The notes under the pieces were generated by a model. It saw nothing but the letters and a program-made list of their open reading frames with translations, was not told where the DNA came from and searched no databases. This document shows, one piece after another, positions 27,018-64,000 of a DNA stretch of 64,000 bases. The position numbers and the translations under genes were made by a program. Every line of letters starts with the position of its first letter. Position 1 is the stretch's first letter. Source of the stretch: Elsinoe ampelina (taxonomy: Eukaryota). The stretch spans positions 1,102,483-1,166,482 of the forward strand of contig ML992508.1 in the NCBI GenBank assembly GCA_010093995.1. Reading direction: 5' to 3'.

Positions 27018-29011
27018 ATGCCGATGTACGAACACTTCCGACTGAATCCATACTAAAAAAGAAGGACTAACATGGTATAGGCTCAAAGATCCCTCCATCA
27101 AATACAAAAAGTTCAAGCCCTTGGACCTTCCGAATAGACAATGGCCCTCCAAGACCCTCGACAAACCCCCACGATGGCTGTCCACGGACCTGCGAGACGG
27201 CAACCAGAGTCTGGTAGATCCCATGGACGGTGAGCAGAAGTGGAAGTACTTTCAAATGCTCACCAAGCTCGGCTACAAAGAGATCGAAGTCTCCTTCCCT
27301 TCCGCATCAGACACCGAATTCGGCTTCACGCGGCGTTTAGTCGAGACTCCTGGAGTTGTCCCTGACGACGTTTGGTTACAGGTGCTATCACCTTGCCGGA
27401 AAGAGCTGATAAGGAGGACCGTCGATTCTCTGAAGGGCGCGAACAAGGCATTACTACATCTGTACCTGGCCACCTCACCATGCTTCCAGCAAATCGTCTT
27501 CCAGATGGACAATGCACAGAGCAAGGCGCTGGCGGTGGAATGCACAAAGTATGCTCGGAGCATTACAAAAGACGATCCAACACAGAAGGGTACGGAGTGG
27601 GCATTCGAGTTCTCCCCAGAGACCTTCTCAGACTCGGATCCAGACTTCGTGGTGGAAGTTTGCGAGGCAGTCAAGGCTGCATGGGAGCCCTCGGAAAGCA
27701 ACCCAATCATCTTCAATCTGCCAGCCACAGTCGAGATGTCAACCCCGAATGTATATGCTGATCAGATTGAGTACTTCTGCAGGAACATCACAGAACGGGA
27801 AAAGGTCTGTGTCTCTCTACATCCACACAATGATAGAGGATGTGCTGTTGCAGCAGCGGAACTGGCACAAATGGCTGGAGCGGATAGAGTTGAGGGTACT
27901 CTATTTGGTAACGGCGAGCGAACGGGTAATGTAGACTTGGTGACTCTTGCCCTGAACCTTTACACACAAGGAGTACATCCCAAGGTCGATTTTAGCGACA
28001 TCAACAGTGTCATCGACATCGTTGAGAAGAGCAACAAGATTCCTGTACATCCGAGAGCACCATATGGTGGTCAGCTGGTAGTATGTGCTTTCTCAGGAAG
28101 TCACCAGGATGCGATCAAGAAGGGTTTCCAGGTACGGAAACAAAATAGTGCGTCAGACACGGATCCTTGGGTCATGCCGTACCTGCCTCTGGATCCGCAG
28201 GACATTGGTCGGACATACGAAGCCATCATTCGTGTCAACAGCCAATCTGGCAAGGGCGGTGTTGCTTGGATCATCCAGCGGACTCTGGAACTCGACCTAC
28301 CTCGTGGTCTACAAGTCGCTTTCAGCAAAATCGTGCAAAAGCGAACAGACAGCCTGGGTCGCGAGCTGCAACCTGGCGAGATCAAGGATTTGTTCGTTAA
28401 TGCTTACCATCTGGAGGGCAATCCTCGTTTCAGTCTGGTAGACTACGATATCACTACTGACAGATCTCAATCACCCGCTCCGCCTGGACCAGGCAAGACT
28501 GTATCAACAAAGAACCTCAAGCGACGTTTCGCAGGTGTCATTGAGATTGACGGTCAGGAGCACCAGATCAAAGGTGTGGGTAATGGTGCTCTCTCAGCTA
28601 TGGCACATGCTTTGCACACTGTGGGTGTGGACTTGGATGTGGCGGACTACAAGGAGCACGCTATTGGACGAGGAAGGGATGTCAAGGCCGCTACATACAT
28701 CGAGTGCACATCGTCTACGACGACACAAAAGGTCTGGGGTGTAGGTGTTCATCATGATGTGGTTCAGGCGTCTCTAATCGCGTTGCTGTCGGCGGCCAGC
28801 TCAGTGAGTTTCGGTAGTCTCCTTGCAGAGAGCTCAGCTAACGGCTCGGCAGTTTCTTGACAGCAGACCAGGCACACCAATGCCATTCCGACCAAAGAAG
28901 GGTATGTCCGAGTCGATAGAGGATTTGAAGGCCGATGTTTCTCCGGCAAATGGGCAAGATGCAAATGGTCATGTAGTGGCTGTTCCAGAGATCAAGAGGA
29001 ACGGGTCGTAG
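27018..29011 (+). CDS. LEU4: 2-isopropylmalate synthase
   Basis: Micro-exon ATGCCGAT plus intron gives MPMLKDPSIKY. Motifs STDLRDGNQSL, EFSPETFS, NLPATVE, SLHPHNDRG and FGNGERTGNVD, followed by the C-terminal regulatory domain. Last intron at ~28804-28852. Confidence 0.97.
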
Positions 29012-34715: not shown

Positions 34716-35492
34716 ATGAGGTTTCTGGAACCATCAAATTGCTCTTCACACGCATCCTTAGACAGCATCAAATTCAAAAACCTGCAACAGATGACAATCG
34801 TGCATAATCGGTGTCTAGCTAAGCCTGTTCGAGGCACTGCCGGCAAACATCCCTGCAGGCGGGCCACACAATCTTGATCCACATCCATTGTTCGCTGCCA
34901 GGTTTCGCGGCTCCACAAGGTGCGAGGAGCTCAACGAAAGCTCTGCGGAAGATAAGTTACAATGACGAATACCTCTGCGTCTGCGCATTGCGCATCTCTA
35001 ACAATGAATCCGGTTCACCTGTATGCTCTCAATGTCCATTCCTAACAAGTGTGAGCTCCGACCATCGCCAAATTCAACGAGAAGTCGACATTCCTTCCAA
35101 ATCCGGACGTTGCTCTTGACGACGCTCCCGTAAACACGACTCGCTCAACCACACGCAGCGGAAGACTGCACCTCACGATCGTAATCGATACCGATTATTG
35201 ACGAACAACTGATCAGTGCTTGGCTCAATTTGCCGTTTGCGAAAAAGAGGCTTTTCGACTTCCTAGCCGCAAATCTCAACTTCAAGAACGTCCGACACTG
35301 GACAAAATCTCTGGCCGAAACGCATTTCGACACGGGCGACTTCACATTTACTTGGCCCCCGACAGTACAGAGATGACCTCATGACAGACGACTCATGATT
35401 GTGAAGCTCTCCGAAGAGTAGAGCAGATTGATGGTGAGGTACGACAGCGCTCGTAGATAAGGAGACCGCAGGTTGCTGCACGACCAGTGACA

Positions 35493-38400
35493 ATGCCCTT
35501 CACGCCAATGGCCACCCGCAGGCCATCCGCGCCGGAGAAGCACCTGGACCTCACCGCCCAGGACGCCGCATATCGCCCTGCCACAGTCAAGCAAAAGGTC
35601 AAGCAATGGCAAGGAGATGGTGGAGGAGTACTGGAAACGCCTACACCTCCAAAGGCCAAGGGCTGGAGTTTACCCAAGAGCCCGATCAAAAGCCCGGCCA
35701 GTCCGGTCAAAGAGAAGCCAGCGTTGTTACACAAAGAGCCTCAAGGACCTCTACTACCAGAAGGCTACCAAGCCAAGCCATTGGACATCATCCGAGATAC
35801 CAAGACTGGCGCGCATGCTCTTGTCAAGTCACGCTCGCCTCCGAAACCCGCCACGACATCGAACAAGCCCGGTCCGGCCACATGGGATCCTAATCGGAAG
35901 GTCTTCGTAAGAAAGCGGGAGAACAAACTTCAAGCATATGAGGAGGATGAGATGAAGATGGCCACTTCGCCAAAGAAGAGGGTCATTAGCGACGGACACT
36001 GGAGGAAGGACAAATCACCGATCAAGCCCTCAGGCAATCCTCGATATGTGCCTGTTGCAGAGCCAAAACAGCGAATTATCACACAGAAAAGTACACCCGA
36101 TTTCCGGAGCAGACCTGCAAAGCCTGCTGCAACAGCTGCCTTCGCCGTGCGGAAAGCGCAAGAGAGGCCGAAATGGATGGCCATGGATCCGACGAGAGAT
36201 CCTGACTTGGTGGCCAGCATGACAAGGAAGCGATCAAGATCGAGATCAAGAGAACGGAGAGGTGATTCGTCCTCTGTAAATGTTGAAAGAGCTGTACCAA
36301 GGCCGGGAAGGACTCCAAATACGCCGCAGAAGACGCCCAGAAAAGTGTCCGACCGACATAGCTCTGACAGCGATTCTACAGAGAGGGTAGTTGGGACACA
36401 AAGACCTCAGACTGCGAGGCGCACCAGCCATCGAAACCCGCCCAGCAGCCCCATGACTTCGGATGTTGGCACAGAAGACCCCTTCTCTCTGGCTAGCCCA
36501 TGTCCAGACGACAGTATCAGCCGTGTTGGAATGCCAAAGTCTGCACCTCAGCGATTACCGAGTAGGAAGGAACAGCCGCGGAAAGTGTCAGTACCAGCGC
36601 CAGTGTATCAGGAACCAATACCTGCGAAACAGAAGTCTCCCCCAGGACCGCCACCGGTATTTGGCAATCGTATCGAGGCATGGCTTGGTAGGCAGTCGGA
36701 TCCGTTCTGGGACGAGACTACCACAGCCATGGATGAAGCGCGCTCGTCGATACCTTCACCTGTTCCCGAGCCTCTCCGGCCTCGGAAGAAGGAAGACAAA
36801 CACGCCAGTCCGGATCTTCGTCAGCCGCTGAAGCAAGGCGGTCAGGGTCGAAAGTTCAGCTATGAGCAGGACGAGTACGTGATGTCAGGAGGTTTGAAGA
36901 CATCGCCGAGCAACAAGGAGAATGGCTCTGATGCCCGCAAAGCTTCGTACGAGCTTGGAGACGAGCAGAATTTTAACAAAAGAAAGTCGAGCGCCGGTCA
37001 AGCTGGAATCGGCTTAGGTATCGGCCTAGGGATCAATATGCTTCGCCGAGAGGCGCCCACGACTGGAAAGGCGCTCTCGACTATAGCGTCCGAGGTTACC
37101 CAAGAACCATACCAGGCACGCAGACCACCACCTTCGATAGCAGAGGAGTCATATGCGGCGAGCTCCATCTCTCTCACGACTATTGGCGGCAAACCCACGA
37201 AAGCATCTTCCAAGAAGTCGCCCAGTCTCAAGCGCAGGCTAACAAAGCACGACGACCTTATGACTGTGCTGTCGATTCCGACAACCGCTCACAGTCTTGC
37301 ATCAGCCCGTAGCTTTCGCAAAGAGCGGCTCCGAGCAGACAAGCAAAGCAAAGAAGAAGTCTTGAAGGAGCTTGCGACGGAAGAAGAAAAATACAGACGC
37401 GAACTTCTGACTTTGGTCGACGGCATCATTCCGGTACTCTTGTCAAGCGTTCTCGCAAAGTCTGGTTCTTGCTCACCTTCGAGCACTCTCAGCAAGGATG
37501 GAACGAAGCAGAATGCCACCCAACCTATTGTTGATATGGGCGTCGCTCTGGAGCGATTGAAGACGCAGCATAGACGCATGCCACAGACCAATCCTGGTGC
37601 ATTACTGGTGTGGGCTCAGAATGCGGCGAGAATCTACGAAGACTACATCAAGGCATGGAAGATGGGCTTTGACGATGTAGTGATCAACCTACCAAAGGGT
37701 GATAAGGCCGCTTGGGCCGAAGGTTTGTCACAAAACGCTGCTGGGGATCTGGTCAATGGCAAGGGGGAGCGAGTGGATGTTGCTTTTCTTTTGAAGCGGC
37801 CGCTGGTCCGAGTCAAAAACTTGACCAAAACGTTTAGGGTGAGGATATCCTGTGCGCCTGATGGTGTTTGCTGATTATGGTTCAGGCGATCTATCACCTC
37901 ATACCTTCACCTGATGCAGTCGCCATGTCTGAAAGGTATCATGCTCTTATGGTAGCTGCACGCAAGAAGTCTAATGATGAGCTTGCTCGGATTGAAGACG
38001 AAGCAGCAGCTTCCATCGACCCAACGAGGGCACGAGATCCTCGAAGTCTGGCGCCCCTGGCCGGCGTGCGCATTGATGCGTCGAGAAGCGTACGGGCTCG
38101 TGACTACTTCGAAATGACTCTCAGGCATACTACTGGTCAGCAAGTCGACTGTGCGATCGAGATCATAATCCGCGATAATGAAGCAGACCCAGACAAGGGT
38201 GGAGATGTGCTCTTCTGCGAGGTCTCGGATACTGGGAGGTGGCTCTTGTTCCCGCCCGTGATCCAAGACATGGTATCTGCACGTCGTGGCAAGACGGACT
38301 CGGAATTGATCATGATGATCAGGGGTGTGGCTTCGGATGGTAATGACTGGTCTGAACTGCTTACTCTACATTCGTCCAGCGAGGAAGCTGTCGATGAGTG

Positions 38401-41024
38401 GTCGAATATGCTCAGCGACGGACCTGTACCGCCCTCACCTACGGCAACAGAGTTTACGCTACCTATGCCTACGCCCCTCACGCCTGATGTAGACCTCATA
38501 CCACCGCCGCTATCGCCTACTCCACCCTCTCCTGGTAGGACTGGAAGACCTAATGTCACATTCAAAAGCCGTACTCCTTCGCCAAAGGAAGTAGAGATCC
38601 CTATTGGAGAGCAAGCCCGCAAAACTTCAAAGCGATGGTCGTTTAGTATTGGCGGGACTGCTGCTGATCTTCTTGATCAAGCTACTCCCAGAGTGTTCAA
38701 GAAGGTGTCTGGCTCGCATCCGCCTGGATCGATGGACAACAGGAGGACGAGCCGTAATATGTCAAGTCCGTCTGGGCAGAGATCAAGCAGAGTTGACAGG
38801 ACTGGCGATCCCTACGCCTACACTGATAGCTCTGTTTCCAGAGACCTACCTCATGGTAGATCTGACTTGAGTCGAGCCAGATCAATACGATCACGAGGAA
38901 CACCCACAAAATCAGCTCCTGCTTCTCCCCGATCGGATTACAGCGAGTCGACCATCAAAGACAGGAGTCCGACTAGGTCCCCTCAGCCCAGAAGACCTAG
39001 TATGACACGCTCGAGACCCACTGGTGACTCATTTGGTACGGACAGATCTTCTGAGCTGAGTTATAGCGTGTGGATGCCATCTACGTTGTCAGGCAGTCAT
39101 CCGGATGACGACGATATCAGTAGTGACGAGGAGTATGATCAACGGCCTAGTGCCAATTCTCAGGGATCACGAGCACAGACAGAGCCTCTCTCACCGAGAC
39201 CAGCTCTGCACACAAGAACGTCTTCGACGCCGTCTGGCAGTATGCCGACCATTCCAAGAATAAGGCCTTCAGCACCTTCGACACCAGCTTCGGAGAGACC
39301 GATGTCTAAGGGATCCTATATGTCCTCGGATATCAGTCATGGACCGCAGACTCCAACCAGACCTGCCATGACCCGTTCCGAGGGCTCACGACTATCCTCT
39401 GACGTTAGCAGGGATGCGCCATCTTCCGCACCTGGCAAGTTGCAAAAGTTTGTTGCCGGCCTGAAGTCAGACAAGTCTCCCGAGCCAAAGTTGACGTCGC
39501 AGACATCAAACAGGCCAAAGAGCGGATTCTTCTCTGCTTCAAATTTCCTCAAGAATCGTCGGCCATCCTCTCCACTCAAGCGTGAGTACGATCCTGCAGC
39601 CGAAGAGGCGATCTCGGACACGGACAGCGAGGACTCCTACGATGATATCGACTCGCTCAGTACTCATTCTTCTGACCTCGAGGATGAGGCTTACGATCAT
39701 TTCTCTCAAGCGTCTCCTCACGTTCCAGCTCAGCAGTTCCCGAAGGCAACTCCACCTCAGTCACTTGCTTCCATGTCTGGACCCAGCTTGGAGCCGTCTA
39801 ATTCTGCCTCTCAAGGTCCGAACCGTGCAGTGCCACCGTCTGCGCCTCTTGCGGCAATCAAAGGCGTCGCCATGATCTTCTCCTGGTCTGATCGTGGCGC
39901 GTGGGACCCACTTCACCCGGTCGAAGTATCTGTTGTGGTATCGGCAGGCCTGATCGAAGCATTCTCCATGCCGGACTCACACAGTGTACCTTCGATGGAG
40001 AACGGCCAAGAAGTCTCGCCAAGTCATTTCAATGTTGCTCCTCTAGTCGCACTAGAGCTCACTCCGCTGGTCCCTCTTCGCAGAGGAACAGCTCTTGACA
40101 TCTCCATCCGCTCTCCACCTACAGACAACAGTCAGATCCGCAGCAGTAACAATGTCATGTTCCGCTCTCGCAGCCCCGAAGAATGCGAACGTCTCTACAG
40201 CCTGATCAACCAAGCACGCATCAACAACGCCACCTATATCGCACTGCAGAACGCCCGCCCGCATGAAAACCAAGGCACCTGGGCCGCACAAATGGACAAG
40301 CGCAACGCCATGCGCTCCTCCTCAGGATCCTTCTTCGGTCTCGGCAGCCGCAGAGGCAGCACCTACCGCAGCAACTCGATCCGCAAGCGCAGCAGCGCTA
40401 TGAGCGAGAGTTCCGTCGGGACCATGAACACCGCCTTCTCCGCCCTCCGTCGACTGAGCGGAACCTGGCGCAGAGGCGAAAACTCCACCAACTCGGACAG
40501 TCTGGAAAGCGGGTACAGCACCCCTGTACGCAACAGCATGATGTCCTCCGGTCTCGGCCCGGACCTCGCCCTCGGCATCAAGGAGATGAAAGTCCGCATC
40601 TACCACCGCGAGAACGCGAGCAAGTGGCGGGACATGGGCAGCGCGAGGCTCACAATCATGTTGCCCGAGCGGCCCGGCAGCGCAGGCAGTCCGGCGGGGA
40701 GGGTCGATGCAAAGAGGATCCTGGTCAAGGGCACGACGAAGGGGGAGACGTTGCTGGATGAGACGTTGGCGGAGGGCGCGTTTGAACGGGTGGCGAGGAC
40801 GGGCATCGCGGTGAGTGTGTGGCGCGACAATGCTGGGAGCACGGAGGGGGTGGGGAGGGCGGTGGACAAGGGAGGGGTGGGGGCGAATCGGATGGATGTT
40901 TATATGGTGCAGATGAAGAGTGTGAGTAATTGCCTTTCTGGGGATGTGGGGGGTGGAAACTGACTGTTGATAGGAACGTGATGCGGCGTATACTTTTGGG
41001 TTGGTGGGGAAGTTGAGGTATTGA
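35493..41024 (+). CDS. Large conserved fungal protein: disordered Ser/Pro regions, DH-like helical region and PH-like domains (3 exons)
   Basis: Two long ORFs are joined by intron ~37839-37885; a last intron ~40922-40972 gives ERDAAYTFGLVGKLRY*. Globular blocks include EEKYRRELLTLVDGIIP, FLLKRPLVRVK, FSWSDRGAW, MFRSRSPEECERLY and KWRDMGSARLTI. Domain names are inferred from the sequence pattern. Confidence 0.85.
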
Positions 41025-44656: not shown

Positions 44657-47600
44657 TCAGACGTCCACAAATTCAGCATCCGTATCTATGGCTTCCGAAT
44701 CATATGCTGGCTCCTCGTCGTTATCGGAATTCGACGCAAAATCAGATTCACCAGTCCTCACCCTCACCTTCCTGCCACGGACCAGTCTCGACTGTGCATC
44801 TTTTCGCAGCCGCACCTTACGTTCAGCTAGATGCTTTAGTGTCGTGCCATTGATAGCTCGTTAGCAATTTACCTACCGCGAATCTCCGTAGTCAGCTCCG
44901 CAAGCTTATCAAGTTCCTCTTCCGTGACAGCGCGAAGTATGATTACATGATCCTTGCGCTCTTCGTAGCGTTCTCCTGCACGATATAGTGCTTCTGGGTT
45001 GATGAGACCACGTCTGACTTTGGTCCAACGCGCATCCTCAGGGGTTTGATCCGGGGTTTGAACCTACCAGAGTCAGTATGAGCGGGATAATGATATGGTG
45101 TAACGGACATCTTTGCTTCGAAGGACGGCAGCGCTAGCCACGGAAGGAGTTCCTGTCGTCATTTCTCCTCCATCTTCCAACCTGTGCGCTTGCTTGTTCA
45201 TGGAGAGGTGATCATCTTCGACAGCTTGTTCATCGGACGAGGTGGTCTCCTGATCCATCCGGGCAATCCCTTGTTCCTCGGCAGCGAATTTGTCGGGTTG
45301 TATGTCGTCCTTGCGCTGATCTGGACCGCCTTGTAAATCGTTCGAGATATCCTTGTGCTTGATTCTTATATTCGACTCGGGTTGAGGAACGACCGCCGGA
45401 TCATCCTTGGACGATCCATGGTGCAGCAGCAAATCCACAATTTCCGGCAGGTCCTTCGATCTTGCAGCGGCTAGCGTAGATCCATATTCCCAGTTACCTT
45501 GATCGACGTCTGCACCAGCCCGCAGAAGCAACCTGATCATTGGAAGATTATCTTGGCAATCTTCATCACATATCGCAGCCATCAACGCGGTGCCATACTT
45601 GCCGCCTTGCTGATTGACATTGGCGCCAGCTTTCAAAATCATCTCTACTGCTTCGATATGGTCATCCTCTTCGTGGAATCGACCACATATTGCCGCTTGT
45701 AACGCATTTCCGTACTCCGAGCCTTCCACATTTGGGTCCGCTCCAGCATCCAACAAATATTTCAAGGCTCGTAGCTCCCCTGAATCCGCTGCAGCCTGCA
45801 GTGCCGTTCCATATCTACTGCCGACGTCGTCGATATCCGCGCCAGCTCCGATGAGTAATCGTGCACTTTCTGTGCGACCTCCCTCAGCTGCAGATTGCAG
45901 TGGGGTCAGTACTTTCGCATTCGCATTGACGTCAGCTCCGGCACGCAGAAGCTGCTTCGCAAGGCCCAAGCTATGAAGCCGGCATGCGCAGCCTAGAGGA
46001 GAACCATAGTCACCGCCCGTGGCGTTTACGTTGGCCCCTGCATCAAGGAGTAGCTGCACGAGAGCTTCATCGTTGTTCGTAGCAGCTGCTTGCAAGACAC
46101 TGTGGAAATTACCACATTCTGTCGTAACGTCAGCACCATGATCCAGCAGTAGACGGACCAGCTCGATAGATCCTTTCCACGCAGCTGCATGCAGGGCCGT
46201 GCCGTACGTGCTGACTCGTGCGTTGACATCAGCCCCGTGATCTATCAGTAGCTTTACTGCATCCACGGACCTAGATCTTAAGGCAGCACGCAAAGGATTC
46301 CCGGACAGCCTCCCATCAAAATTAACGTCAGCACCGGCCTCCAGGCAGGCCCTCATAACATGCAGGTCTCCTTCTCCTGCAGCTACACGAAGTGCTGTCC
46401 TTTGATATGCATCGACTGCATCGATCTCGGCACCAGCTTCAAGAAGACGCCGGAATATCCTCTCATCTCCTTGCCATGATGCGGCGATGAGTGCAGTCCT
46501 ATGATCGCCGCCTTCTGCTCGAGCATCGGCCCCAGCAGCGAGCAGCATCTCGACACTCTCGAGACTTTGCCTATAGCTTGCGGCTTGCAAGGGGTTCCCG
46601 TACCTGCCGCCTTCTACATTCGGATCATGACCCAATGCCAGAAGCCGCTCTAGCACTTGATGAAGACCTTCCAGAGCTGCAAAATATAGCTGTCTCGCAC
46701 ATTCAGATGCGTCGAATGATTCCGGGCGGCCATGGATGTCTGGATCATAGAATGATCGTATGATATGATACCTCTCTGGTTGAACGAGCAGCTGCAGAGC
46801 AGCTTCGATGAGATATTCTGACGGTCGCTGCAGACGCCGCAAGCATGTCGCCCATTGTTGGGACGCAAAAGCTATGAGGGGGTACATGTGCTCCATGCTC
46901 TCAAGCGATACGCTTGTGTCTATCGAGAGTAGATAGCCTATGAGTACTCTCGTACACTCTTGCAAAGAAACTTGCTCGGCGAAAGAGCTGGCGCCGTGAT
47001 ATTCAGAAAGCAAGTATTCGCTGACCCAGTCCTCGGCAAAACTGAATCGCAGTGGTGGAGACTCAGTAGTAGCAGTGAGGAATGGACACATGTCCAGGAT
47101 TTGATTCAAAGAGAAGGTCGGGTAGGATAGGTCAAAAGCTGGCGTGGACTCAGGCTGCACTCGCAACGTTTCGAGCGCACTGTCGCAGGTGAAACGATCC
47201 AGATCTGAAGCGCCAGTAATGGACTCGTCGATGTGGATCATGAAGCGCAGCAATCCTATCGCAGCTGCCTTTGACGCTGGTGGGAGGTTGTTCAAAATCC
47301 TACCACATGCACCTCTCGAAAGGCGCTCTGACTCCCTGTCGCTCAGCGAATTCGGGGCTTCAAAGACATGACTTTGTCCGTTGGTTTCCAATGCAGCCAG
47401 ATAGTCCTTGAGCTGCTCAGCCGTCGGCAATCGAAGCGCTTCTTGCGTTCGGCGGTTTATCCAGTAAAGACTATAGCGCAGATCAGTACTAATAGCATAA
47501 CAAAGCAGAGCTGAATGCACACACTCTCGTTGGCACGTCTCAAAAATTGCCTTCTGTAATCGAAACCGTAAGCTTTCGTCCCTGAACCAATTTATATCGT

Positions 47601-50430
47601 CGTCGACCTTGGCTTGAGCGAGTCGATGCTTGACAATCAGATTGGCGTCGTCATCGATATTTCGATCAACTATCTTGATGATTGATATACCTTGAGCGCC
47701 CCAAGTCACATGATGCTCGAATTCCGGGGTACTGGTAAGAACCACGCTGTGTACCTTCTGGACATCCTGCAAGAAGTCCCAAAGATCTGACGCTATCTCC
47801 CTCGGAAGATGGTCGACGTCATCGAGAACGAGGTACATATGTGGTAGATTCATCATCAAATACATGACTGCGTCCAAAACGCTCTTGAAATCTGGCTGCT
47901 GCCTACCCTTCTCACAGCGTTCGAAGAGGTTCATAAGCGGCGACTGTGTGTCGGAGTCTATGAAACTCAGGTCAAGCAGTATTGAACGGAGACAAGACGC
48001 CAAGTGAAAATCCGGTGCATCGACAGAACCGAGTGAAGCGAAGGAGAAGTATATGACTGGATCTGATCGGTGCGACTTGTTGGCCTCGATGAGAAACTTC
48101 TTCTTGCCTTCACCTCGTTGTTCGTTCGTTTTATCATGCAGGACCTCGAACATAGCTTGGTCCAATTCGCGGTAGATGATGATGTAGTTAGGGTCCACCT
48201 AGGAGGGATTAGTCAGGGGAAAAAAGGGGCAGTGGAATGGCAAGGAAAAGAGAAGGGCAATTAGGGGACATGGGACTTACGGGGTCGTAGCGATAGGCGA
48301 TTCCGAATTCCTTAAGCACGTCGGTGGAAATCTCATGTCTGTGAGCGCGCGGGTAGACAGGTTCGCGTCCTGCACCAGCGACAATGATGTCCCCCGCCGG
48401 GTGGTGACCATGACCATGGTGGCGGCCAGTACCGTGTACGTCTTCTTTTAACAGCATGAGAAGTGTCGTTTTTCCAGAGTGGAGTGGCCCTTGGATCCAT
48501 AGCTGCGAGTCACGTTGATGCAACCAGTCTTGGTAGCGTGTATCCGATAGTAGCCATCGACCGACCCCCGGACAGTAAGCGTCGGCGATGTTGGAGAAGG
48601 GGTCTGTGATGTGCCCGGGATGAAGCCACTGCCGTAGCCTGCTTCGCTCTACATCGATCAACGCGTCGTCTTCGGATGAGAAAGCCGAACTGGTCTCATT
48701 GTCGCTTGACAGGGCTGCTGAAACGTTACTGTCCGTTTGGAAATAAGCAAAGTCGTTGGCGTAGACCAGCTCATCGCCAGGATCCTCCTCGGTACTTCCA
48801 CCAGTAGTTCCGTCTGGACCACGCAGCCACAAATTGGTGACAAGGTCGGCCGTCTCCTGGTAGGATACGACACCGTCAAAGCCAACGTCATCAACCCAGC
48901 TTCTGAGTCGCTCGTGGAAAGCGGTCGCACCATGGGAGGAGCCTGCGGAAAGTCGATCGTATGTCTCGGTCTTCGCCCATGGTAGGGATGCGAGAGCAAA
49001 TGCATGGATGTGCTCTGCAATGTGATCTGTGAGATCAGCGTCCTGGTAATCTTCGGTCTGCTCATCCGCCCAATTGCAGAGTGGACAGGAACTGATGAGT
49101 GGCGGGACCGATTCGCGGCCAGCTTCTGCAAACTCTTCGGCATCTGTTATTGAATCTGCATGGGTGATCACAAGGTGCTGAGTCAATGTCCTGCGGTCTT
49201 CAAAGGTCTGCCCATCCTCGCACAACAAGCAATTCCACGTTTCGGATCCAACATGTTCTTGCTCCATGTGCTTCGTCCAGTCATTACGTGTAGCAAATGT
49301 GGTCAACGGCTGAGGGCAACTTTCCAGGATACAGGTGTAGGGGCGAACATCCTGGGCAATATGGTTCCTGGTGGGTGTTAGTGATTCTCCGACAGGCGGC
49401 CCGCGGTCATCTCAAACCTCCATCTTGTCTTTGTTGTGCCCTCTGTAGGTTGTGGTAGGAAGCAGCAAGGACATCTGAAATTGTCCATTGTATTTTCAAT
49501 GGCCGGGAGGCGAGGATATGTCAATCGCGAAGCTGTCGTAGAGATCTCGGTCTTGGCTCGCTGGGAATGCGCCGGAGCCGTCGCTGCAGTCTGGATAGGT
49601 CGATCGGGACGAGAAGCTACTGTATCTGTGAAAGCGCCTGGTGATGCATGCGGGTGAAGTGCGCCTTCTTGCCGTCTGCTGTCGTTCTGCTTCCCTGGGA
49701 CGTCGGCAGTCGTGTCGGTCCGACCGAACTGCCCTGACTGGTTCTGGGTACTTAGTCCGTCATCTTGACTACGTACAGGTGGTGAAGTAAGCCTTTGAGC
49801 ATGCTTGTAGAAGTAGACGAAGCGATGCCGACGCCGTAAGTTGGCGGCTATCAGACGTTCTTGAATCTCGTCGAAAACAAAGCTGGTAGGATCCGCATGG
49901 CCATCGTGTAAGGCGCCCACAAGGCTTACGACTTCATCTTTGGTAGCAGTAGCTGTAAGTATCAAGAATCTGCAATGCGTCTTAAAGGCTTCGTAGTGGT
50001 CACGGTTAAAAGTGGCATCGGCCCTTGCAAGTCTCGATGTGGTGCCGGATCGTCTGATGGCGCGGGCCAGTGCAGAGAGCTGGGACAAGACATTCTCAAC
50101 ATCGTATGTAACTTCTCCACCTACTGCTGAAGATTGTGTGTCTCTGTACTGTTCGAGTGAGGCACCCAGCAGGTCCAACAAGCCCACTATCAAATTGTGT
50201 AGTCGAGTTTCTCCGGCCAGCAGCAAGCGGGAATCAAGGTTGGCTTTTGTTGAAGCCTGAGCCCCAACCGTCGAGATCCAAAAGCAAAATTCCGCAAGTT
50301 TGTTCTCGATCCATTGCTTCTGAGACTGACCCCCAATCTTCTTGCCACAGACTTCGAAAAGTTCGAGGCATGGTAGTACTTTGTCTGCGATTTGCGACGA
50401 CGGTCGTCCGGACAAGACTGTCAGAGACAT
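44657..50430 (-). CDS. NLR-like protein: helical N-domain, C2H2 zinc fingers, NACHT, ~13 ankyrin repeats, with two integrated small domains
   Basis: Introns ~49417-49369, 48280-48199, (47522-47472), ~45109-45064 and ~44876-44828 all splice in frame. Zinc-finger motifs FRCPCC, RPYTC..C..WTKHMEQEH, CLLC..HL..H and CPLC..HIAEH. NACHT lead-in PGVGRWLL..YQDW, Walker A GPLHSGKT, Walker B YLVLDDVD. Ankyrin repeats of the G[NT]ALQAA..G..V.LLL..GADVN type. Confidence 0.88.
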
Positions 50431-50669
50431 GCCCGGCGAGATACCCTTAATGGTTAATGGGATCTGGACTCGTGACTCAACGTCTTTATGTTAGGGTAGG
50501 GTGTCGTTGAGGATAAACACGCTGTCGTGGTGGCGCATCTTCAGCTTCAGCTGAGCTGAGGACTGTGGCCAATCAAAGGGCTCCTCTAGCCGCAGTGACA
50601 TTGTGGCGACTTGTGCGACAGCAACTGCAGCATTGTGCGAGTTTGCTCCTAACGTTCTCACCAGCGACA

Positions 50670-53655
50670 ATGGCCGACAGAATCAATTCCGAGTATGTTG
50701 GTCTAGTGCAAGAAGTGTTCAATGCAAGTCAGGTCATAGCCGTAACCGTGGCGCAGACCGAGCGGTCTCCATTCTTGGGAGGCATTGGGACTAAGCTACA
50801 CCTCGCCGCTGTCGACGAGACTCTGCAGAGGGCACTTCTGTTACCGTCTTACGGTGGCGTTGTTCAATCGGCAATCATCGAGTTGAGCCGTATGGCTAAG
50901 GTGAGCAGATCTTCAGGCTCGTCATTGACCTGGCTGACAGCTTCCGCGGGCGCCCATCAAAGCTGGCACAGATCAAGCGCTCCCTCTGGAGTCATTACGG
51001 CGACTCGCGACCTGGATGAATGGCCACAACAGGGGTAGCATTGAGTTTCGCCGCGCCCTCGAACAATTCAATCGAGTCATTCCTGCTAGTCTAAGGGTCC
51101 GTTTCGATACCCCTTCAACTGACCTGGAGAGGTACTTGAATGCCATCAACCGTGCTACTCCAACCACAGACGATGTCATCGAGTCACAGGAAGTCCCTGC
51201 TGATCTTGAGGACTACGCAAATGATCTGAATGATCACCTCTTCCACCTTCTGCACGATCCTGCAGCATGCATTTGCACGATCCCGATACGTCGGACCGCG
51301 CACATATAGGATGTTTGCGATTGAAGACGACTCCAATTATATGGAAGGATCGAGTGGCATTTGATGTGATCCTGTCCGGCAAGCCTGCAGAAGGGAGTAA
51401 GGGCATGAACTGGGGGCATCGCCAACAACTACGTCTCATGCTGCCGAAGTATGGTGTACTATGTCATGAGGTATGGGCTGTTGACTCTAGTACAGAAAGA
51501 AGAAATCGGTAAAGAAAACCACCCGCTTCGCTCATACGGAGCCTCCTCATGATAACGGTTTGGATTTGGAAATCCCCGAGCTATCTTACTCGGGTCGAGC
51601 GGAGCACTTCTGCAACATTCTGAATGACAACAAAGGTCCCATTCTCATCTGCATTGAGGTTCAAGACAATCAATTCTTCGTCCTGGACGACCATGAAGAT
51701 GGACAGCCGATTGACCACAACGACACGGTATCCTTAACACAAGTCCTGCGGCACTACAGATTGTCCGCTAAAATGAAGCTAATACTGGCTTATACCCTGG
51801 CCCTAGCAGTCTGGCGATACTACCAGTCCGCTTGGATGAACAGGGAATGGTCCGTGGAGACGATACATTTCTTGAAGGAAGAATCTGGTACTTCACCGGG
51901 TTCCTGTGGCATATTTGCAAGCAGTCCTTGCTTCCTCATGAGTTACAACGAGACTGAAGATTGTATCCAGGAAGAGATAGAGGACAAGGTAATAGCTCAC
52001 AGATATCCTCGCCTGTTGGCATTAGGCAATCTGTTACTTGATCTTGGTAGATCTCGCCCGTTACCTGAGCAATCTACCCAGAAGGGGATCTCGATGGAGT
52101 GCCGCATCAACAATGATTCGGCTAGGGGAAATATCCTGCTCAAACGAGACGAGACCTGGCCCTAATTGGACGATAGTATGACAGACCAATCAGTTCGAGA
52201 CACATACCGGGAGGTTACAAAGAGATGTCTTGACAAACACTTCTTTGCTTCGCATGCGAGAGGCGACCGGGCAGCAGTGGTGGGCAAGCGCAAGTCCAGC
52301 TTGCCAGCCGGTAAGAAGGTCGTACAGAAGGCAGATAATGTGACCACTATTGAAGAGCGGCGGGAGATGATTTACAAGCTCATCGTAGGTCCGTTAAAAG
52401 AGCTGCTGAGTCGTACGGGCTGGTTAGCGCAACTGGAAGGCCTTGAAGCCGTGCGAGAGCGCACTTTGACTTCACAGGACACACCAGTTGCCCAAGTCAG
52501 CGCCCTGGAAGGAAACCCCTCTCCCTCTGAGGAAGCTCAATCACGGCTTCTAGAAGGTGGAAACCTGACAAAGTACGCATAACAGACTGGTCGTTGAGAT
52601 TTATCTGATCCGTCTCTTTAGCCCGGCGAGATGGCTGGAAAGGACCAAATTGTCGTACGCAGCGATGGTGAAAGGCCACATGCGGGAGTTCACATCATCG
52701 AATCCAGGCCATACAAAGGTCAAGATTGCTATCCTCGATACAGGATATGACCCTTTCAGCCCCGAATTCGTCCTTCGAGATCGACGCAAGCGCTTCAGCA
52801 AAAACCACTGGAAAGACTTTGCCGGCGACTCGCCCACTCCGATCGACGAGAACGGTCACGGCACACGAGTACAGTGGCTCATGATGCAAGTCGCCCCCTT
52901 CGTCGACATCTACGTAGCCCGCATCGCCCGCCATTGCAAGGACCTGGAGAACTCTCACTCAGCCATCGAAAAGGTTCACCCCTCCTTCCTTCCCCAAACC
53001 CACCCGCTGATCCTCCCAGGCAATCAAATGGGCCACCGAAGACTGCCAGGTCGACATCATCAGCATGTTCTTCGGCTTCGACGACGAAAACTACAGCGCA
53101 ACCGGCAATCCCATCCGACAAGCCATCGACAACGCCCGCGGCTCCCGCCCTGCCGGCAACATCCTCTTCTACGCCGCAGCAGGCAACGAAGGCGGAAACC
53201 AAACCAAGGTCATGTTTCCAGCAAAGCACGATCTCGTGACGCCCATCTATGGCACCCGCTCCACGGGCGAGTTCATGGACGGTCTCAACCCGATCCCACC
53301 CAGCGACGGACACGCCATCTTCGGGACCTACGCAGATGAAATCCCCTGCGCAGGCCGCCAGGACGAAGACGAGGCCAGAATGACAGGAACTTCTTTCGCG
53401 ACGGCCATTGCGGCTGGACTGGCGGGTATGCTACTGGAGTACATCCGAGTCATGGAGAGGAAGCATCAACAGAACTACGAGACATCGATGCCGTGGAGCA
53501 CACGGCTGGGCACGAAAGCAGGGATGGAGGCGCTGTTCAAGACGTTCTCGAAGACGCAGTATCAGAGGAGGTATTACCTCTACCCGCCGGCGTTTTTCCG
53601 GAGGTCGGAAGAAGAGAACCTCGCGCATGTGAAGACGGTGTATCACGCTTTGTAA
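50670..53655 (+). pseudogene. Intracellular subtilisin-like (S8) protease with long N-terminal region including a kinase-like fold (DUF7580-like); disabled
   Basis: Catalytic triad motifs AILDTG, DENGHGT and GTSFAT, plus AAAGNEG; no signal peptide. Introns at 50901-50940, ~51449-51494, ~52573-52621 and ~52974-53019. Frameshift near 51278 and in-frame TAA at 52163-52165. Confidence 0.85.
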
Positions 53656-53836
53656 GCAAAGGCAGGAAGAGTGGGAGGTGATGATAATGAGTAATGTCTG
53701 TATGAAAATCATGAATCTAGCGCACCACCCCGGCCATTCATGATTCTGGAAAAAGGGGGTGGAAGAATATGCATTCCCGACCTCTCATGTATTATGTACA
53801 AGCTCTACCCAATCCTGTCCTCCTCCTCTTATCCTC

Positions 53837-56800
53837 TTATCCTCTTTTCTCCATCTCCCCCAACACACTCCTCCCCCAATCATCACTCTGCTCCCTCGCG
53901 TGCCTTCCTCCCAGCGCCCCACCCAGGCCTCCTTGCCCACCTCCTCCACCCATCCCGGCAAACCCAGGATGAAACTCCCCACCTCCCAAAGTCCCAATAT
54001 CCACCGGCACAGGACTACTCATCTCACCCCCGCTCCCCCTCCCACTTTGCCGCCTGGCCTCGTCACGCACGAAACCATCCCCATCCCCCGTTCCATAACC
54101 ATACCCGTGACCGCCTCCCCTGTCCATCTCCCCCACAAGCCCAGGCGCATACCCCTCCTCCCCACCCCCGCTCAAATCCCCCCCAAACTCCCCCGTGGAA
54201 CCATACCCGTACCCATCCTCCAAACTCCGCCTCACGGGACTATCAAACGCATTCCCCTCTACAGGAGAGTACTCCATACTCGCGGCATTAGGCCCACTGC
54301 CCACCGTACCGATCGATGCATTCGCCACATGCAACCCCCTGCTCCGCGAAGGGGGCATGCGCTCCTGCGTCGGCGTCGCTTCGTTCCTGTCCGGCACGCC
54401 GACGAAGCCGCCGTCGAAACCACCGTCGAGATCCAAGTTGTGCGGTCGTTGGGCCAGTGTCCATTCCGGGTTTGGCGGGAGGGGTTTGTCGTCCCGGGGA
54501 AAGGCGGGGCCGGAGGGGCCGTCGTACATCGGCGGTTGTGCAGGGGGGTACTGGCCCGAGGGAGCGCGGACCGGGGTGTCGAGTTGGCTGTCGTCTGTCG
54601 CGTTGGTGGCGGCGCTTTCGCGGCGGTCGGAGGATGGGTCGGGCGAGTAGGGCATGTCGCTCACGGACTCGACGTGGCGGAGGGAGCTGCGGGTTGTGTT
54701 GGACGCGCGGGTGACGGAGCCGGGGGAGTTGCGGATGCCGATGCCGATTGCGGCGGAGCTGGCGTGGCGGGCGGATTGACCGGAGCCGGAGCCGCGGCGG
54801 CCGAGGGCGTCTTCAGGGGTGGCCGTGTCGACGCTGCCTTCGCCTTCGGGGTCGCGGATGGAAAATTGCGCAATGGTCTGCATTTTGCGGGACACCCAGG
54901 AGGCGAGGATCTTGCCGCGTTGTTTTTCGCCGAGGCGGGAGCGAGGGAAGTCGCCTTTAGAGACGAAGGCGACGATGTCGAGGACGAGTTGGTGCTCGTT
55001 GAGCACGGTGTTCACGATCACTGGAACGATGGAGGCGAGGTAGGCGCGAGTACGAGATTCGGCGATTAGGACGAGTAGGTTGCCGGCTTGGAAAATGGCG
55101 CTGGAAATGTTAGCTTCAATCATCACACCACAGATATAGTCCTTACCATCCACCAGGGACCAGCGCACGGTGGCACCTTTCTACGCTAGCTTCAACGTCG
55201 ATCGGGAAGTGCTGAAGCCCACACACATCGAACGTCTCACCAACACTACCAAGAACAAAAAGTACTTGCATCTCTACCATGTTGTTCCCAGGACCGATCG
55301 GCCGGCTGACGTTGTGCAAGAATCCAATATCTGCTGTTCGCACATAGCGCACATTCGGATCACCATCGATAGTGTGACCGTTGAAGCGCTCGTTGTCGAA
55401 TGGATCCTTGCTTCCGTAGAAGTTGTGGGCGTTGGCCTCGCTTTGTACCCAGATCTCTCCGATTTCTCCAACCAAACAGAGTCGATTCGTCTCTGGGTTG
55501 ACGATGCTAATCTGAGTCGACACAGGGACCATGCCGCTATCCTGTATCTGCAAAGCAAATTGCTCCGTATCCGGGTCGACCGGAACGACAAGACCTCGTC
55601 GTAAAGCAGAAGGGTCAAGATAGAGCTCAATCGGCTCAATGCACATGTACGATCTTGATGCGATCATTGGATTCAAGACGTGAGAGTAGATGGTGTTAAT
55701 GGCGGTACGGTCGAGGTTAACCGGCTGAAAGTGCGAACGGACTCGAGGATACACATCAAGTCGTGGTCGCTGTTCAGTTGAGATCATCAGGTTCTTGAGC
55801 TCATGAAGAGAGCTATGCTTGCCTGCGCCGTGAGCCATGGCATGGTCCAGCATCTGGGTCGTCGCGTAGGTGTCCTTGATCTTGTATCGGGCGAGCGTCT
55901 GGAACAGCAGATTCGGATTTGCAGCAAAGTCCACGGGTGAGACGAGGTATGTTGGTGAGGCAAGGAAGATTCCCATCATGCAGGTGTGGAGGAATCCAAG
56001 ACCCATAGTGGATCGCACGCATCCAAGTATTGGTCGACTCGAGGTCATCTGACAAGTCTCTTTCTGCACTTTGCACAAAGCCATCAAAGTGTTGTGCCCA
56101 AGCTGAACAGCTACTCGTCGCTGATCCGGCGTCCAGTACGTCCAAATCACCACAGGATATCCAGGCTGAACCCAAGCGGGGCGCATCGTCAGCCCAAGCT
56201 CTCGGCATCCATGAGATTGTTTCGATGGCTTGGTAGTATTGTAGATATTCGGAAGATTGACTTTGAGAATCAACGCCGACTGTTTGAGATGCTGCGAGAC
56301 CGTCTTCTGCTTCAGCAACTCATTGACATCTGCATTGACAATGATAGCCTTGATCCGAAAATCCGCAATGACATGTAGCAATGCCGGTGCGTCCTCGTTC
56401 AGGCGATTCGAGTCGACCGGTGCCATCGGTACAGCCACTACTCCAAGACACATACATGCATGAACCGCATACACAAAATCCTCGGAATGCGTATACATCA
56501 GCAGCACGTGGTCGCCAGGCTGCACTTTGGCCTTGTTCTTCAAGTATATCGCCACAGCAGCAACCTTGAGATCGAACTTCTTCCAATTAATCGCCTTGCC
56601 CTCTCTGCCTCTAGCATCGATAGCGCAGATGGCTGTCTCGTCTGCCTGCCGTGAGACCCGCCACTGCATCAGGTCGTGAATATTCGAAAATTGTGTAAGC
56701 GGCGTCGATGTCCGGTCATCTATCACCACTTCCCGATGATCGACGCCAGAGTACTGCTTGTCGTGCATGAAGAGGATCTCCTGCCGGATCTGCGATGCTA

Positions 56801-60489: not shown

Positions 60490-62508
60490 CTAGTAGGTGA
60501 ATGCCTCCTCGATGAAGTCGACCGATCCCGCCTGGACCTTGTCTCGAGCGGCGGCGCGTACGCTGTCAGCGAAGGCACCTGGACCACACACGGTGACACC
60601 CATGGCACCTACGCGGTCGACCATCTCCTTCTCGATGATCGTGACTGGGTTGCATCGTCCTGGGAACATTTGGACGGTTCCGGTATTGCTCCGGATCTCG
60701 TTCTGGTGGCGAGGCTTCGTGATGAAGAGTTGAATCCGCAATATATCCTTGCGATTCGGCATTCTGAGCACTTGATCCATCCAGGGACGCACCCATTCGA
60801 GTGCTTCAGTGTTCGGGAGTGACCAGACAAGTAGGATACGTCTGGTGGAGCATGTACCCTCGGCGTACTTGGTCAAAAGGTCCTTCATATAGGATAGGCA
60901 GTGAGTGATACCCACACCGCCAGCGAAGAGAAGGACTGTCCCGTATGAGTCTAGGGGCTCGTGGCCGCCATATGGACCCTCGATGCCGCCCCTGATCACC
61001 ATCTGACCTCTCGGACAAGCAGCGGCACGGTCGTACAACTTCTTGGTCATGCCAGTACGAGCACGAATGACAAGGCTGACAGAGGTGCTGGCATCCTTCT
61101 TGGGTACTGAGTGAAGGTCGACTTCGGTCTTGACCATCGTGGGTTCGAGTGGGGCCTTGAAGGTAGAGTCGCGGTTCATGACAGGACTGGTGATGCTGTA
61201 CGGCGGGAGCTTCTCAATGTCGAGCTCCATGGCAGGCATCTTGGTCGTTGTCTCGGCCCATGCAACAGAAAAAGGATGTGAGCTCCAGCCACTGATAGAA
61301 GGAAAGTAGACGTGGACGTGAGCACCAGGGACGAACGACCATGGTCGAGCGAGGTCAAAGGTGACACGGCAGGCCTCGGATGGTAGAGCCTCAACCGTAA
61401 CCCTAGTCATGCCGTTGCGGAAGCTAAGGTTGTAGTAGACAATGCGGTAAAGTCGGCAAGCCCACTCGCCGGCCCACATGGCAAAGGCGGCGCGCACATA
61501 GGGCAGCTGAGGGAGCTTGGCCTTCTCAATGTGGATGTAGACACCGATCAAGGCGACCAGGGCCAAGGCACGGTGCATGTTGATGAAGAACTCATAGAAG
61601 GCATGTCTGAGAGGAGACAGGGCGAGAATGACCATGGCGACGAAGACAACAGTCGCAACCATACCCCATCTGTAGCTGGTGCTGGTCTGAAGCGCAGTTG
61701 CGAAGGCGTGTTCGCCACCAGCGTTGACGACGTTGACGGCGAATGCAATCGTGTGTACCAGTGACTGAACCATGACCATTCGTGCGCACCATCGGTGGAA
61801 GAGATTGAACGTGTCGTATGACACGCGAAGAAGTGGGATAAGCGGGTTGTTGCGAAGCGCAAAGACGATGCAGGGGATGATGTTCAACGTGGCGAGCTCT
61901 CCGCTGCGACCACGAAGTTCGGCCCAGACAGACGCGCTCTGATCATGGTCCCAGTCGAGAACCAAGCAGTAGGCAATGTTTGTTGCCAGGTAGATGAAAA
62001 GCAAGATCGAGTGGAAGCGGCTGGGTAAGGTACCGATAGAGATGGCCGATGACAGCTGAATCTCCCTGTTGTGACGCTGGCGAAAAAGCGGGGCGTAGAG
62101 GATGTGACGCTTGATGGCAGGCCACCATGATGTCTGATTCTGTGCCCAGTATCTTTGTTGACCTTTATCACTGATTGTGAACAGGAAGCGCATGTGTGCA
62201 TTACCCATGCGAAGCCATCGAAAGATCAAGGTCGCCACAACCAGCCCAAGTAGCGAAAATCCTAAGAGGATGGCGAACAGGTAGTTTGCATGTTGATTCA
62301 CACCAGTCAGGCCGTGTGTGAAAGTAGCAGCAGCACTTGTGAGATTGCCTAGCAGACCATAGTTGTGTGCATTGTCCAGTTGGACATCGGCCGGGATGAG
62401 TCCAGGGTCCGTCTCTGCGAGTCGCGGCATGAGAGGCGACGATGTGTGGACATGGGAAGGGGATGCAGCTGCGGCGTCAAAATAGTGGTGGACATGGCGG
62501 AAGGACAT
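60490..62508 (-). CDS. Ferric (metallo)reductase transmembrane component, FRE family
   Basis: Motifs RNNPLIPLLRVSYDTFNLFHRW, RHAFYEFFINMH, SHPFS (FAD binding), IEGPYG, LFAGGVGIT (NADPH binding), VCGPGAFADSVR and FIEEAFTY*. The start could instead be the ATG at 62430. Confidence 0.94.
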   Translation of the reverse strand: MSFRHVHHYFDAAAASPSHVHTSSPLMPRLAETDPGLIPADVQLDNAHNYGLLGNLTSAAATFTHGLTGVNQHANYLFAILLGFSLLGLVVATLIFRWLRMGNAHMRFLFTISDKGQQRYWAQNQTSWWPAIKRHILYAPLFRQRHNREIQLSSAISIGTLPSRFHSILLFIYLATNIAYCLVLDWDHDQSASVWAELRGRSGELATLNIIPCIVFALRNNPLIPLLRVSYDTFNLFHRWCARMVMVQSLVHTIAFAVNVVNAGGEHAFATALQTSTSYRWGMVATVVFVAMVILALSPLRHAFYEFFINMHRALALVALIGVYIHIEKAKLPQLPYVRAAFAMWAGEWACRLYRIVYYNLSFRNGMTRVTVEALPSEACRVTFDLARPWSFVPGAHVHVYFPSISGWSSHPFSVAWAETTTKMPAMELDIEKLPPYSITSPVMNRDSTFKAPLEPTMVKTEVDLHSVPKKDASTSVSLVIRARTGMTKKLYDRAAACPRGQMVIRGGIEGPYGGHEPLDSYGTVLLFAGGVGITHCLSYMKDLLTKYAEGTCSTRRILLVWSLPNTEALEWVRPWMDQVLRMPNRKDILRIQLFITKPRHQNEIRSNTGTVQMFPGRCNPVTIIEKEMVDRVGAMGVTVCGPGAFADSVRAAARDKVQAGSVDFIEEAFTY

Positions 62509-64000
62509 AGCGACCAGCGCGGGCGGGTGAGGCAAGGGTAAGACAAAGAATCGAACGAGCCGTTAGGTGACCGAGTCCGGAATTTCTTGTCGAGTTGGCG
62601 GAATGGACAAAGGGGGCTGCTCGGGGAGGATATATCCACTGGCCAAGGGGACTATTGGCTCTTGGTGTCGAAGACGGTATATGATGTGGGGCGAAATTCG
62701 AAGAAGAGAAAATTCACCAAAGAAGATGAAGCTGCTGCTGTACTTTTAATGCAAGAGAGGACGTGGATGCCTCTGATGTGTCGATCGACGACAACAAGGA
62801 CAGCAGCGAATGTCAGCCTAAGGAACAATGTCCATTCCAGGTGATGGAACAAAGGGATTATGAGACGCCCTTGTGAGAATCCTTTGTGGCGGTGATGTCG
62901 GACGTTGTTCTCTGCAGGGGTGACAATGGCGATGGTGATCCAGTCAACAATAGAAGGGCGAGCGGCTTTGTGATCTACAAGGCACGATGATCCAGTCCGA
63001 TCGTGCTTTGGTGTGGAAAAATACCAATCCAGCGGCGAAGGTCTCAGAGGGGCGAGACAGAATGAACGTGTGAGCGAGACAAAGTGTATTTCAACGAGTG
63101 ACGGAAACGATAACGACAGACGCGTGGGCCGAGCGGTGATGCAGCGACACACAGAGAATGGAACGGAAGAAGAGAAGCGTTATGGAAACGACAGGCTATA
63201 GCTCACCTTGAGGTGCTAAAGGGATATAGGCTCATTATGTGTGCGCCTAGGCGAGAAAAGCACATCGAATCAGTCCAGCCACCCCTGAGAATCTCCTGAC
63301 AGGCGTTCCAACGGGCGCCAGCGTCCATGCGCCGCCGGAGTCGAGCCATGTGCCATACGTTATTGGTACATACCACACCTGCGGGCACATGCGTCGATGG
63401 AAGAGTGGAGGTGAAACCTTCCACGGCCTTCTGGCTGCAATCTCGCTGACTGAAGAGGGACAAGCCCAACCAATCATCCAAGATTTGCGGACCCGCTTGG
63501 CGCCCTTCGGTTCAAAGATGGGATTTTTGCAGGCGGATTGGTCGTTTCAGACCCAGAGCTTGTCTGGATTCTCGGTGCAAACCGCGCCAATCACGATTCG
63601 CCTGTGGCGGTTACGGGAAACGAGACGGGTCCACTTTGCTTTTCGTCATACTAAACATTTGCAAAGGACGTTACATCCACATCCCGTTTCTATCGATATC
63701 GATACGGATACGGTATGCTCAATAGAGTCTCCTCACGCATGATCGAGGCTGGGTACGAGTGACGAAGCCAATACAAAGACTCTTGCATTTCCTTGGACTG
63801 CCGGAGTTGAAACAACTTCAGTCCGTGTTCCGCATGCGGATAAAAACCTGCACGGCATCAAAAACGGAGCATGTCGTGGCAGTCTTTTTCAGCTTCATCT
63901 CAACAAATCTCGGTGTGCGATAAAGAACATTCGACGAAATTGGACGATGGTCTAGCATTTCGAGCCGCTAGGTAGTCGCTGGAAATGTACACGAGGTTGT

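Follow-up and report, generated by a model that had tools for sequence, protein, structure and literature searches.

An NLR-like gene of Elsinoe ampelina carries, inside its NACHT domain, an intron-bearing copy of part of a non-NLR gene

Several plant NOD-like receptors (NLRs) contain integrated domains, among them the HMA domains of Pik-1 and RGA5 and the WRKY domain of RRS1. Such domains point to host proteins that are attacked by pathogens. For fungi, C-terminal PKinase domains derived from CHK2/PRD-4 have been proposed as integrated decoys in NLRs of the Sordariales and, in the part of that source drawn on here, the non-canonical domains lie at N- or C-terminal regions (PMC12258605). Here we describe an NLR-like gene on the minus strand of a 64,000-nucleotide stretch of DNA from Elsinoe ampelina (assembly GCA_010093995.1, contig ML992508.1, positions 1,102,483 to 1,166,482; hereafter the window). 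Its NACHT nucleotide-binding domain is interrupted by a segment copied from a non-NLR gene of the same genome, and this segment is retained in the messenger RNA (mRNA). Coordinates of all features are collected in Table 1.

A preliminary description of the locus, made from the sequence alone, had noticed about 100 extra residues just after Walker A, in a loop said to be normally short in fungal NACHTs. Both points stand. The NPHP3_N profile (PF24883) matches the gene in two pieces separated by unmatched residues. Profile positions 1-49 match upstream of an intron (E 4.9e-07; 30.5 bits against a cut-off of 24.8) and the match stops just past GPLHSGKTTLLMLL; positions 42-151 match downstream (E 0.004; 17.8 bits, which alone is below the cut-off), restarting at PVIYFSF. 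Together the two pieces cover 151 of the 164 profile positions. The insert lies between the Walker A helix (helix 1) and strand 2, beginning 9 residues past GKT, and consists of a His/Gly-rich linker followed by a small alpha/beta domain. The borders first drawn for it, 48115-48490, have to be replaced: the exact limits are 48076-48439, which hold 94 codons and 82 nt of intron.

Relatives were collected in an all-against-all HMMER search of 1.84 billion representatives, with the downstream 393 residues as query. Seventeen of the 18 matches are weak NACHT relatives (E 1.9e-5 or worse, 23-36% identity), and nine of these include the P-loop. Aligned with MAFFT, all nine have a gap opposite the insert, so that comparison with the closest NACHT homologs, a check suggested in the preliminary description, confirms an insertion. 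From GK[ST] to the aromatic strand the nine relatives have 18-23 residues; the NLR-like gene has 111 (counted by hand), or 17 without the insert. The motifs GPLHSGKT and LVLDDVD line up with Walker A (GxxxxGK[ST]) and Walker B (hhhhD[DE]) of the same nine proteins. A canonical NLR core, NPHP3_N plus ankyrin repeats, is therefore present together with a 94-residue extra domain. A word-index search with the NACHT part (residues 1-330, near lengths) returned no match at E <= 0.001. The 1.84 billion representatives include no close NLR relative of the gene.

The top match of the HMMER search is not an NLR. This protein (P0121; KAG8626090.1 of Elsinoe batatas) is the only one of the 18 that covers the insert part of the query, and it matches no other part of it (E 8.3e-12, 83% identity); its cluster mate is encoded by E. 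ampelina itself (P0139; KAF2223144.1). Each is 358 aa long, has no NLR domains and bears the source name 'uncharacterized protein', without reference to DUF8035. In both, a long predicted coiled coil is followed by a His-rich linker, then a small alpha/beta domain, and last an RS-rich tail; model confidence is low for the C-terminal region (predicted local distance difference test, pLDDT, 27-50), where the element order alone is usable. The 94 residues of the insert align without gaps to residues 232-325 of both proteins, spanning the His-rich linker, the small domain and a Lys-rich stretch, with 84 of 94 residues identical in P0121 and 83 of 94 in P0139. Between the two proteins there is one difference within this 94-residue stretch and there are 9 over the full 358 residues. 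By tblastn, P0121 matches the window in two exon parts, at 93.5% and 87.8% identity. The earlier suggestion that the insert derives from the C-terminal part of a non-NLR fungal protein is borne out, and homologs do exist outside NACHT proteins.

The donor gene is also found directly in DNA from the same genome. In public DNA run X1 it occupies a separate 37.9-kb contig of normal depth (record 5; depth 147), which matches 48081-48200 with 12 differences and 48276-48422 with 14, that is, 26 of 267 exon letters (~10%). Where 75 letters separate the matched pieces in the window, the donor contig has 89 unlike ones, so that its own intron, although at the same codon boundary, is of another length and sequence. 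The comparison of intron positions with the donor family that had been proposed at the outset thus gives agreement, and since the donor intron stands at the same place, the insert was copied from DNA and not from mRNA. The donor contig has loose ends at 48076 and 48422, beyond which its translation gives the donor's own flanking residues. By eye, homology runs six codons past 48422 to 48439, and with this border the insertion is exactly in frame. What was copied, as DNA and together with its intron, is a 364-bp stretch from the 3' part of a conserved non-NLR gene that has much deeper coverage and is orthologous to the genes of P0121 and P0139.

Transcript data come from public run X3, which was recognised as RNA from its joints alone. 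Contigs of this run show five introns of the NLR-like gene as joints (44827-44876, 45064-45108, 47471-47524, 48199-48280 and 49368-49417), all five with CT..AC ends on the plus strand and hence GT..AG on the gene strand. None of the five joints occurs in DNA run X1, and X3 is therefore taken to be spliced RNA. Three long open frames on the minus strand (49378-50490, 48209-49411 and 45073-48198) are parts of this one gene; once the exons are joined, the frame stays open as far as a stop at 44657-44659. The start codon, at 50430, is predicted as the first in-frame ATG. The 54-nt intron at 47471-47524 is itself in frame and free of stops and lies inside a 1041-codon open frame, so that reading the open reading frame (ORF) adds 18 false residues; it was revealed by the RNA contig alone.

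Two contigs of X3 together link the insert to NLR sequence on both sides. Record 10 runs from 48828 to 48279, first across Walker A and then in the insert, and after the skipped intron it goes on for 116 nt more; record 9 begins at 48109 inside the insert, passes through strand 2 to 47525 and crosses the next intron. Neither has a single differing letter. Their overlap is a 31-mer common to the NLR-like gene and the donor, and because the two genes share it, all assemblies break there. Public runs X4 and X6 contain only short NLR pieces that fall short of the insert junctions. No contig skips the insert, although rare isoforms can drop out of contigs. We also considered a larger intron that would remove the whole insert (by eye, a GTACTG donor at ~48431 and CAG acceptors at ~48058-48064); its joint is in no contig, and a rare isoform of this kind could be missed by contigs.

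The gene is thus transcribed, its introns are removed, and the insert is kept in frame in the mRNA. The intron first read at 48199-48280 is confirmed by a spliced contig. The preliminary description had named splicing-out of the segment as one outcome that would undo its reading; we see two contigs that retain it. Its notion of an exon-shuffled host domain holds good for a segment copied as DNA with its intron and kept in the transcript. We regard this origin of the insert and its retention in mRNA, taken together, as very probable.

The identity of the inserted domain is less clear. It had been likened, tentatively, to DUF8035 (PF26118), and that part of the proposal fares only partly well: the insert is DUF8035-like, its membership of the family is only weakly supported, and a true DUF8035 is found instead at the C-terminus of the same gene. 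A custom full-domain hidden Markov model (HMM), built from 120 DUF8035 proteins, gives the insert 10.4 bits, a score reached by none of 2000 shuffles (maximum 7.2), and across ~1810 modelled residues the one companion match is the true C-terminal domain. An earlier version, truncated at the C-terminal helix, had scored the insert at only 0.9 bits. Comparison of insert and family by hhalign gives E 0.0036 and a probability of 9%, over 30 columns only. The nearest Atlas clusters, which carry PF26118, score 0.86 and 0.83, under the 0.9 line. Pairwise blastp between insert and C-terminal exon aligns 26 residues (E 0.006, in a one-sequence search). The predicted element order of the donor domain is that of DUF8035, in a region where the donor model has pLDDT <50. 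The custom HMM, hhalign, Atlas neighbours and element order thus agree in direction, none of them decisively. The local Pfam set, which lacks PF26118, was blank for both halves of the insert, the C-terminal exon, P0001 and P0002, and these blanks carry no weight.

The C-terminal exon itself is readily assigned. It scores 83.3 bits with the custom HMM and shares 76% and 72% identity, over 91% of 64 aa, with the PF26118-annotated proteins P0001 and P0002 (Sphaceloma murrayae and Elsinoe fawcettii). Record 7 of X3 joins 44826 to 44877 and 45061 to 45107, splicing this exon onto the ankyrin exon. An AlphaFold2 model based on the family alignment reaches pLDDT 83.6 with the order beta-alpha-beta-beta-alpha; searches for a similar fold gave nothing informative, the best hits being E 0.35 with Foldseek against the PDB and Z 4.7 with VIA-align against 48,161 chains. 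No second X1 contig maps to the exon at 80% likeness, which indicates that the C-terminal DUF8035 is older than the insert. In the set of 120 proteins listed for this family, DUF8035 is a C-terminal add-on to Pkinase (P0032), DHHC (P0067), 2OG oxygenase (P0029) and zf-C2H2_AcuF (P0092) domains.

The other end of the gene carries a helical and zinc-finger module. Its Atlas neighbours score 0.97-0.98, some of them with PF26082 zf-C2H2_AcuF, and it matches P0092 by blastp (E 8e-21); in the local Pfam set the N-terminal ~600 residues have no family, just weak C2H2 matches. P0092, a 776-aa protein of Fusarium decemcellulare with PF26082 and PF26118, has both ends of the NLR-like gene and neither NACHT nor ankyrin repeats. 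On these similarities, the C-terminal DUF8035 may be an old partner of the N-terminal module and not a late addition, or P0092 may be an annotation merge. Within the ankyrin array, 35 nt (46220-46254) match another contig with five differences in X1, X3 and X4, probably because the genome has a related ankyrin repeat at another place.

Divergence between the insert and the donor of the same genome was examined letter by letter. Eighteen nucleotide differences were itemised, 12 of them synonymous and 6 nonsynonymous, the latter in 5 codons. At all five changed codons the donor residue is also that of E. batatas, so the amino-acid changes fell on the insert's side. The ratio of nonsynonymous to synonymous differences per site (pN/pS, Nei-Gojobori sites) is 0.14, or 0.17 with three junction differences added (binomial P 6e-5 to 9e-5). 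At 11 of the 12 synonymous differences the third codon position is A or T in the insert and G or C in the donor, a shift consistent with weak expression and a relaxed codon bias. Repeat-induced point mutation was rejected as the main cause of divergence, just 2 of these 11 positions being in a TpA context. A synonymous difference of ~0.2, combined with the intact frame of ~1830 codons, speaks for maintenance of the chimeric gene and against its decay. At the protein level the insert differs from the donors at 10-11 residues, including three changes of Lys to Asn or Glu (in the C-terminal helix and the Lys-rich tail) and one of Thr to Glu; these make it more acidic than the highly conserved donor.

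What the insert does is a separate question, and here we rank four readings: integrated bait, tolerated passenger, homotypic adaptor and inactivating insertion. Our preference, which is tentative and falls short of even odds, is for a bait or sensor. The insert would hang on flexible Gly/His-rich tethers from the face of the NACHT opposite the nucleotide, and a factor that binds or modifies the donor's C-terminal domain would also engage the receptor's copy. Engagement could then disturb packing of the closed NACHT, leading to oligomerisation and to signalling via the N-terminal module. The preliminary description had a ligand acting directly on the P-loop, and for this we find no support. In P-loop and STAND folds the loop from helix 1 to strand 2 emerges at the sheet end that faces away from the nucleotide, and its distance from the nucleotide site makes direct action unlikely; a Gly/His-tethered excursion read out through closed-state packing is plausible. 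For the explanation as a whole, a blend of the insert's origin, its retention and a bait function, we find the case about evenly balanced.

Several observations weigh against this explanation as a whole. Contigs lose rare isoforms, and a minor form that skips the insert is possible. In X3 the NLR contigs have depths of 9-17 against 826 for the donor, contig depth being a poor measure of expression. The gene is found in one species only, and its best NACHT relative among the representatives searched reaches just E 1.9e-5. The neighbouring gene is not a helper NLR, and none of the 12 large ORFs scanned (of 54 ORFs of at least 180 aa) showed a second NACHT. The selection test mixes two lineages; with half of the synonymous changes attributed to that of the insert, P becomes 0.03-0.06. 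Eight of the 26 nucleotide differences were not itemised, and three of those eight were recovered from the junction letters.

A first rival is that the insert is filler DNA from break repair, in frame by chance and tolerated as a harmless surface loop with no sensing role. The event is unique, the insert occurring in no other NLR of the representative search; Gly/His-rich linkers on its N-terminal side would render the loop excursion harmless; and the conservative form of the selection test is marginal. However, the differences from the donor are mostly synonymous by the ratios given above, the donor's frame, intron and splice sites have been kept and are used, and a second domain of related type in the same gene would be an odd coincidence for random capture. 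We think such a passenger unlikely. Even so, it would be a documented case of a templated, intron-bearing insertion into a coding loop.

A homotypic role is less probable again. As docking modules, the two DUF8035-type copies could anchor the receptor on DUF8035 proteins of the cell, or could bind one another and lock the molecule internally, so that guarding would work by association and not by mimicry. The variety of architectures in which DUF8035 is an add-on speaks for this, as does P0092, in which the same N-terminal module is combined with a C-terminal DUF8035 alone. Mutual binding of DUF8035 domains is, however, an assumption; in some of the listed fusions, annotation may have merged adjoining genes; and the kinship of the insert with DUF8035 is itself weak. 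We consider an adaptor of this kind improbable. Least likely of all is that the insertion broke the NACHT fold and left a transcribed relic, or a scaffold without ATPase switching: the insert does begin close behind GKT, with helix 1 shorter than in the relatives, the contig depth is low and the NACHT is very divergent, but Walker A and Walker B are intact, and the long frame and five correctly spliced introns were kept while synonymous difference reached ~0.2.

Returning to the integrated bait, a more specific form of it can be imagined, in which the insert and the C-terminal DUF8035 together make a two-point trap for a factor that targets DUF8035-type proteins. The sensor would then sit inside the ATPase switch and open the NACHT directly, not via the repeat domain. 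This version is doubtful. The same doubt attaches to the factors that might be trapped, for which a mycovirus, a mycoparasite effector or an allorecognition partner are candidates.

Head-to-head with the NLR-like gene lies a divergently transcribed neighbour (50517-55069, plus strand) with a DUF7580 match (PF24476, E 8.4e-12, 51494-52165), followed by ORFs that have subtilase-like Asp/His motifs and no Pfam match at 1e-5; the neighbour may be another death-domain-like or protease gene. Further away are a large Rho-GEF-like gene with DH_2, PH_23 and PH_24 domains (35460-40963, plus strand) and other ordinary housekeeping genes, among them those for isopropylmalate synthase (27049-28860) and a ferric reductase (60493-62562). 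The region does not look like a repeat-rich island.

Table 1. Features of the NLR-like gene, in positions of the window
Feature	Position	Strand	Basis
NLR-like gene, ~1830 codons	44657..50430	-	Spliced contigs of X3; joined exons give one open frame
Exons of the NLR-like gene	50430-49418, 49367-48281, 48198-47525, 47470-45109, 45063-44877, 44826-44657	-	
N-terminal module: helical domain and AcuF-type C2H2 zinc fingers	48520..50430	-	Atlas neighbours; blastp to P0092
NACHT (NPHP3_N-type) nucleotide-binding domain, interrupted by the insert	47755..48568	-	Split PF24883 match; alignment with 9 relatives
Walker A / P-loop GPLHSGKT	48467..48490	-	Read from sequence; within NPHP3_N profile 1-49 match
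Insert: 53 codons (48281-48439), 82-nt intron (48199-48280), 41 codons (48076-48198)	48076..48439	-	tblastn, donor alignment, loose ends of X1 contig
Walker B LVLDDVD	~47812-47832	-	
Ankyrin repeat array	45400..46700 (approximate limits)	-	Pfam Ank_2 E 2.9e-55, Ank E 1.8e-53
C-terminal exon, bona fide DUF8035	44877..45063	-	Homology to PF26118 proteins, X3 joints, AlphaFold2

In the open-access literature, supplements excluded, we found no description of an integrated domain inside a NACHT, and no mention of DUF8035 was found in the open-access literature. The texts there that mention both Elsinoe and NACHT are two taxonomic monographs. Passages on features 'within the NB-ARC' in the part of one source drawn on here (10.1101/339424) were considered as a precedent and set aside; they concern motifs and introns, not integrated domains.

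Two relationships within the present data help to place the gene. The donor family (P0121 and P0139) shares with it residues 232-325 and the same intron boundary, and differs in having a coiled coil and RS-rich tail and no NLR domains. P0092 shares the homologous N-terminal helical/zinc-finger module and a C-terminal DUF8035 (E 2e-11), and differs in having no NACHT, ankyrin repeats or internal insert, whether as a separate architecture or through an annotation merge.

Plant NLRs with integrated domains resemble the Elsinoe gene in combining an NLR core with a non-canonical domain, of which the same genome also encodes a free-standing paralogue, and in that the copy diverges faster than its conserved donor. 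The position differs: in plants the integrated domain stands before, between or after the canonical domains, whereas the Elsinoe insert interrupts the nucleotide-binding domain itself. A paired helper NLR is common in plants, although not obligatory, and there is none beside the Elsinoe gene. The closest fungal parallel, the Sordariales NLRs with PKinase domains, are likewise NACHT NLRs with a domain resembling a conserved single-copy non-NLR gene, and there the decoy role is proposed from similarity alone. According to the part of the source drawn on here, that integration is older and common to nine NLRs; in Elsinoe it involves one gene, an intra-NACHT insert ~90% identical in DNA to its donor, and in addition a C-terminal DUF8035 (PMC12258605).

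Fungal cases have so far been proposed at protein ends only, and the position of this insert probes the tolerance of a STAND ATPase. Should the insert be functional, it would point to a way of building a sensor directly into the switch. The presence of donor and copy in one genome, with the intron kept, makes the history of the event readable, and two DUF8035-type pieces in one receptor nominate a widespread, uncharacterised fungal family as worth guarding. Overall, integrated domains are known in plant NLRs and have recently been proposed in fungi; what the Elsinoe gene adds is a position within the nucleotide-binding domain, a clear pair of donor and copy, and a related domain at the C-terminus.

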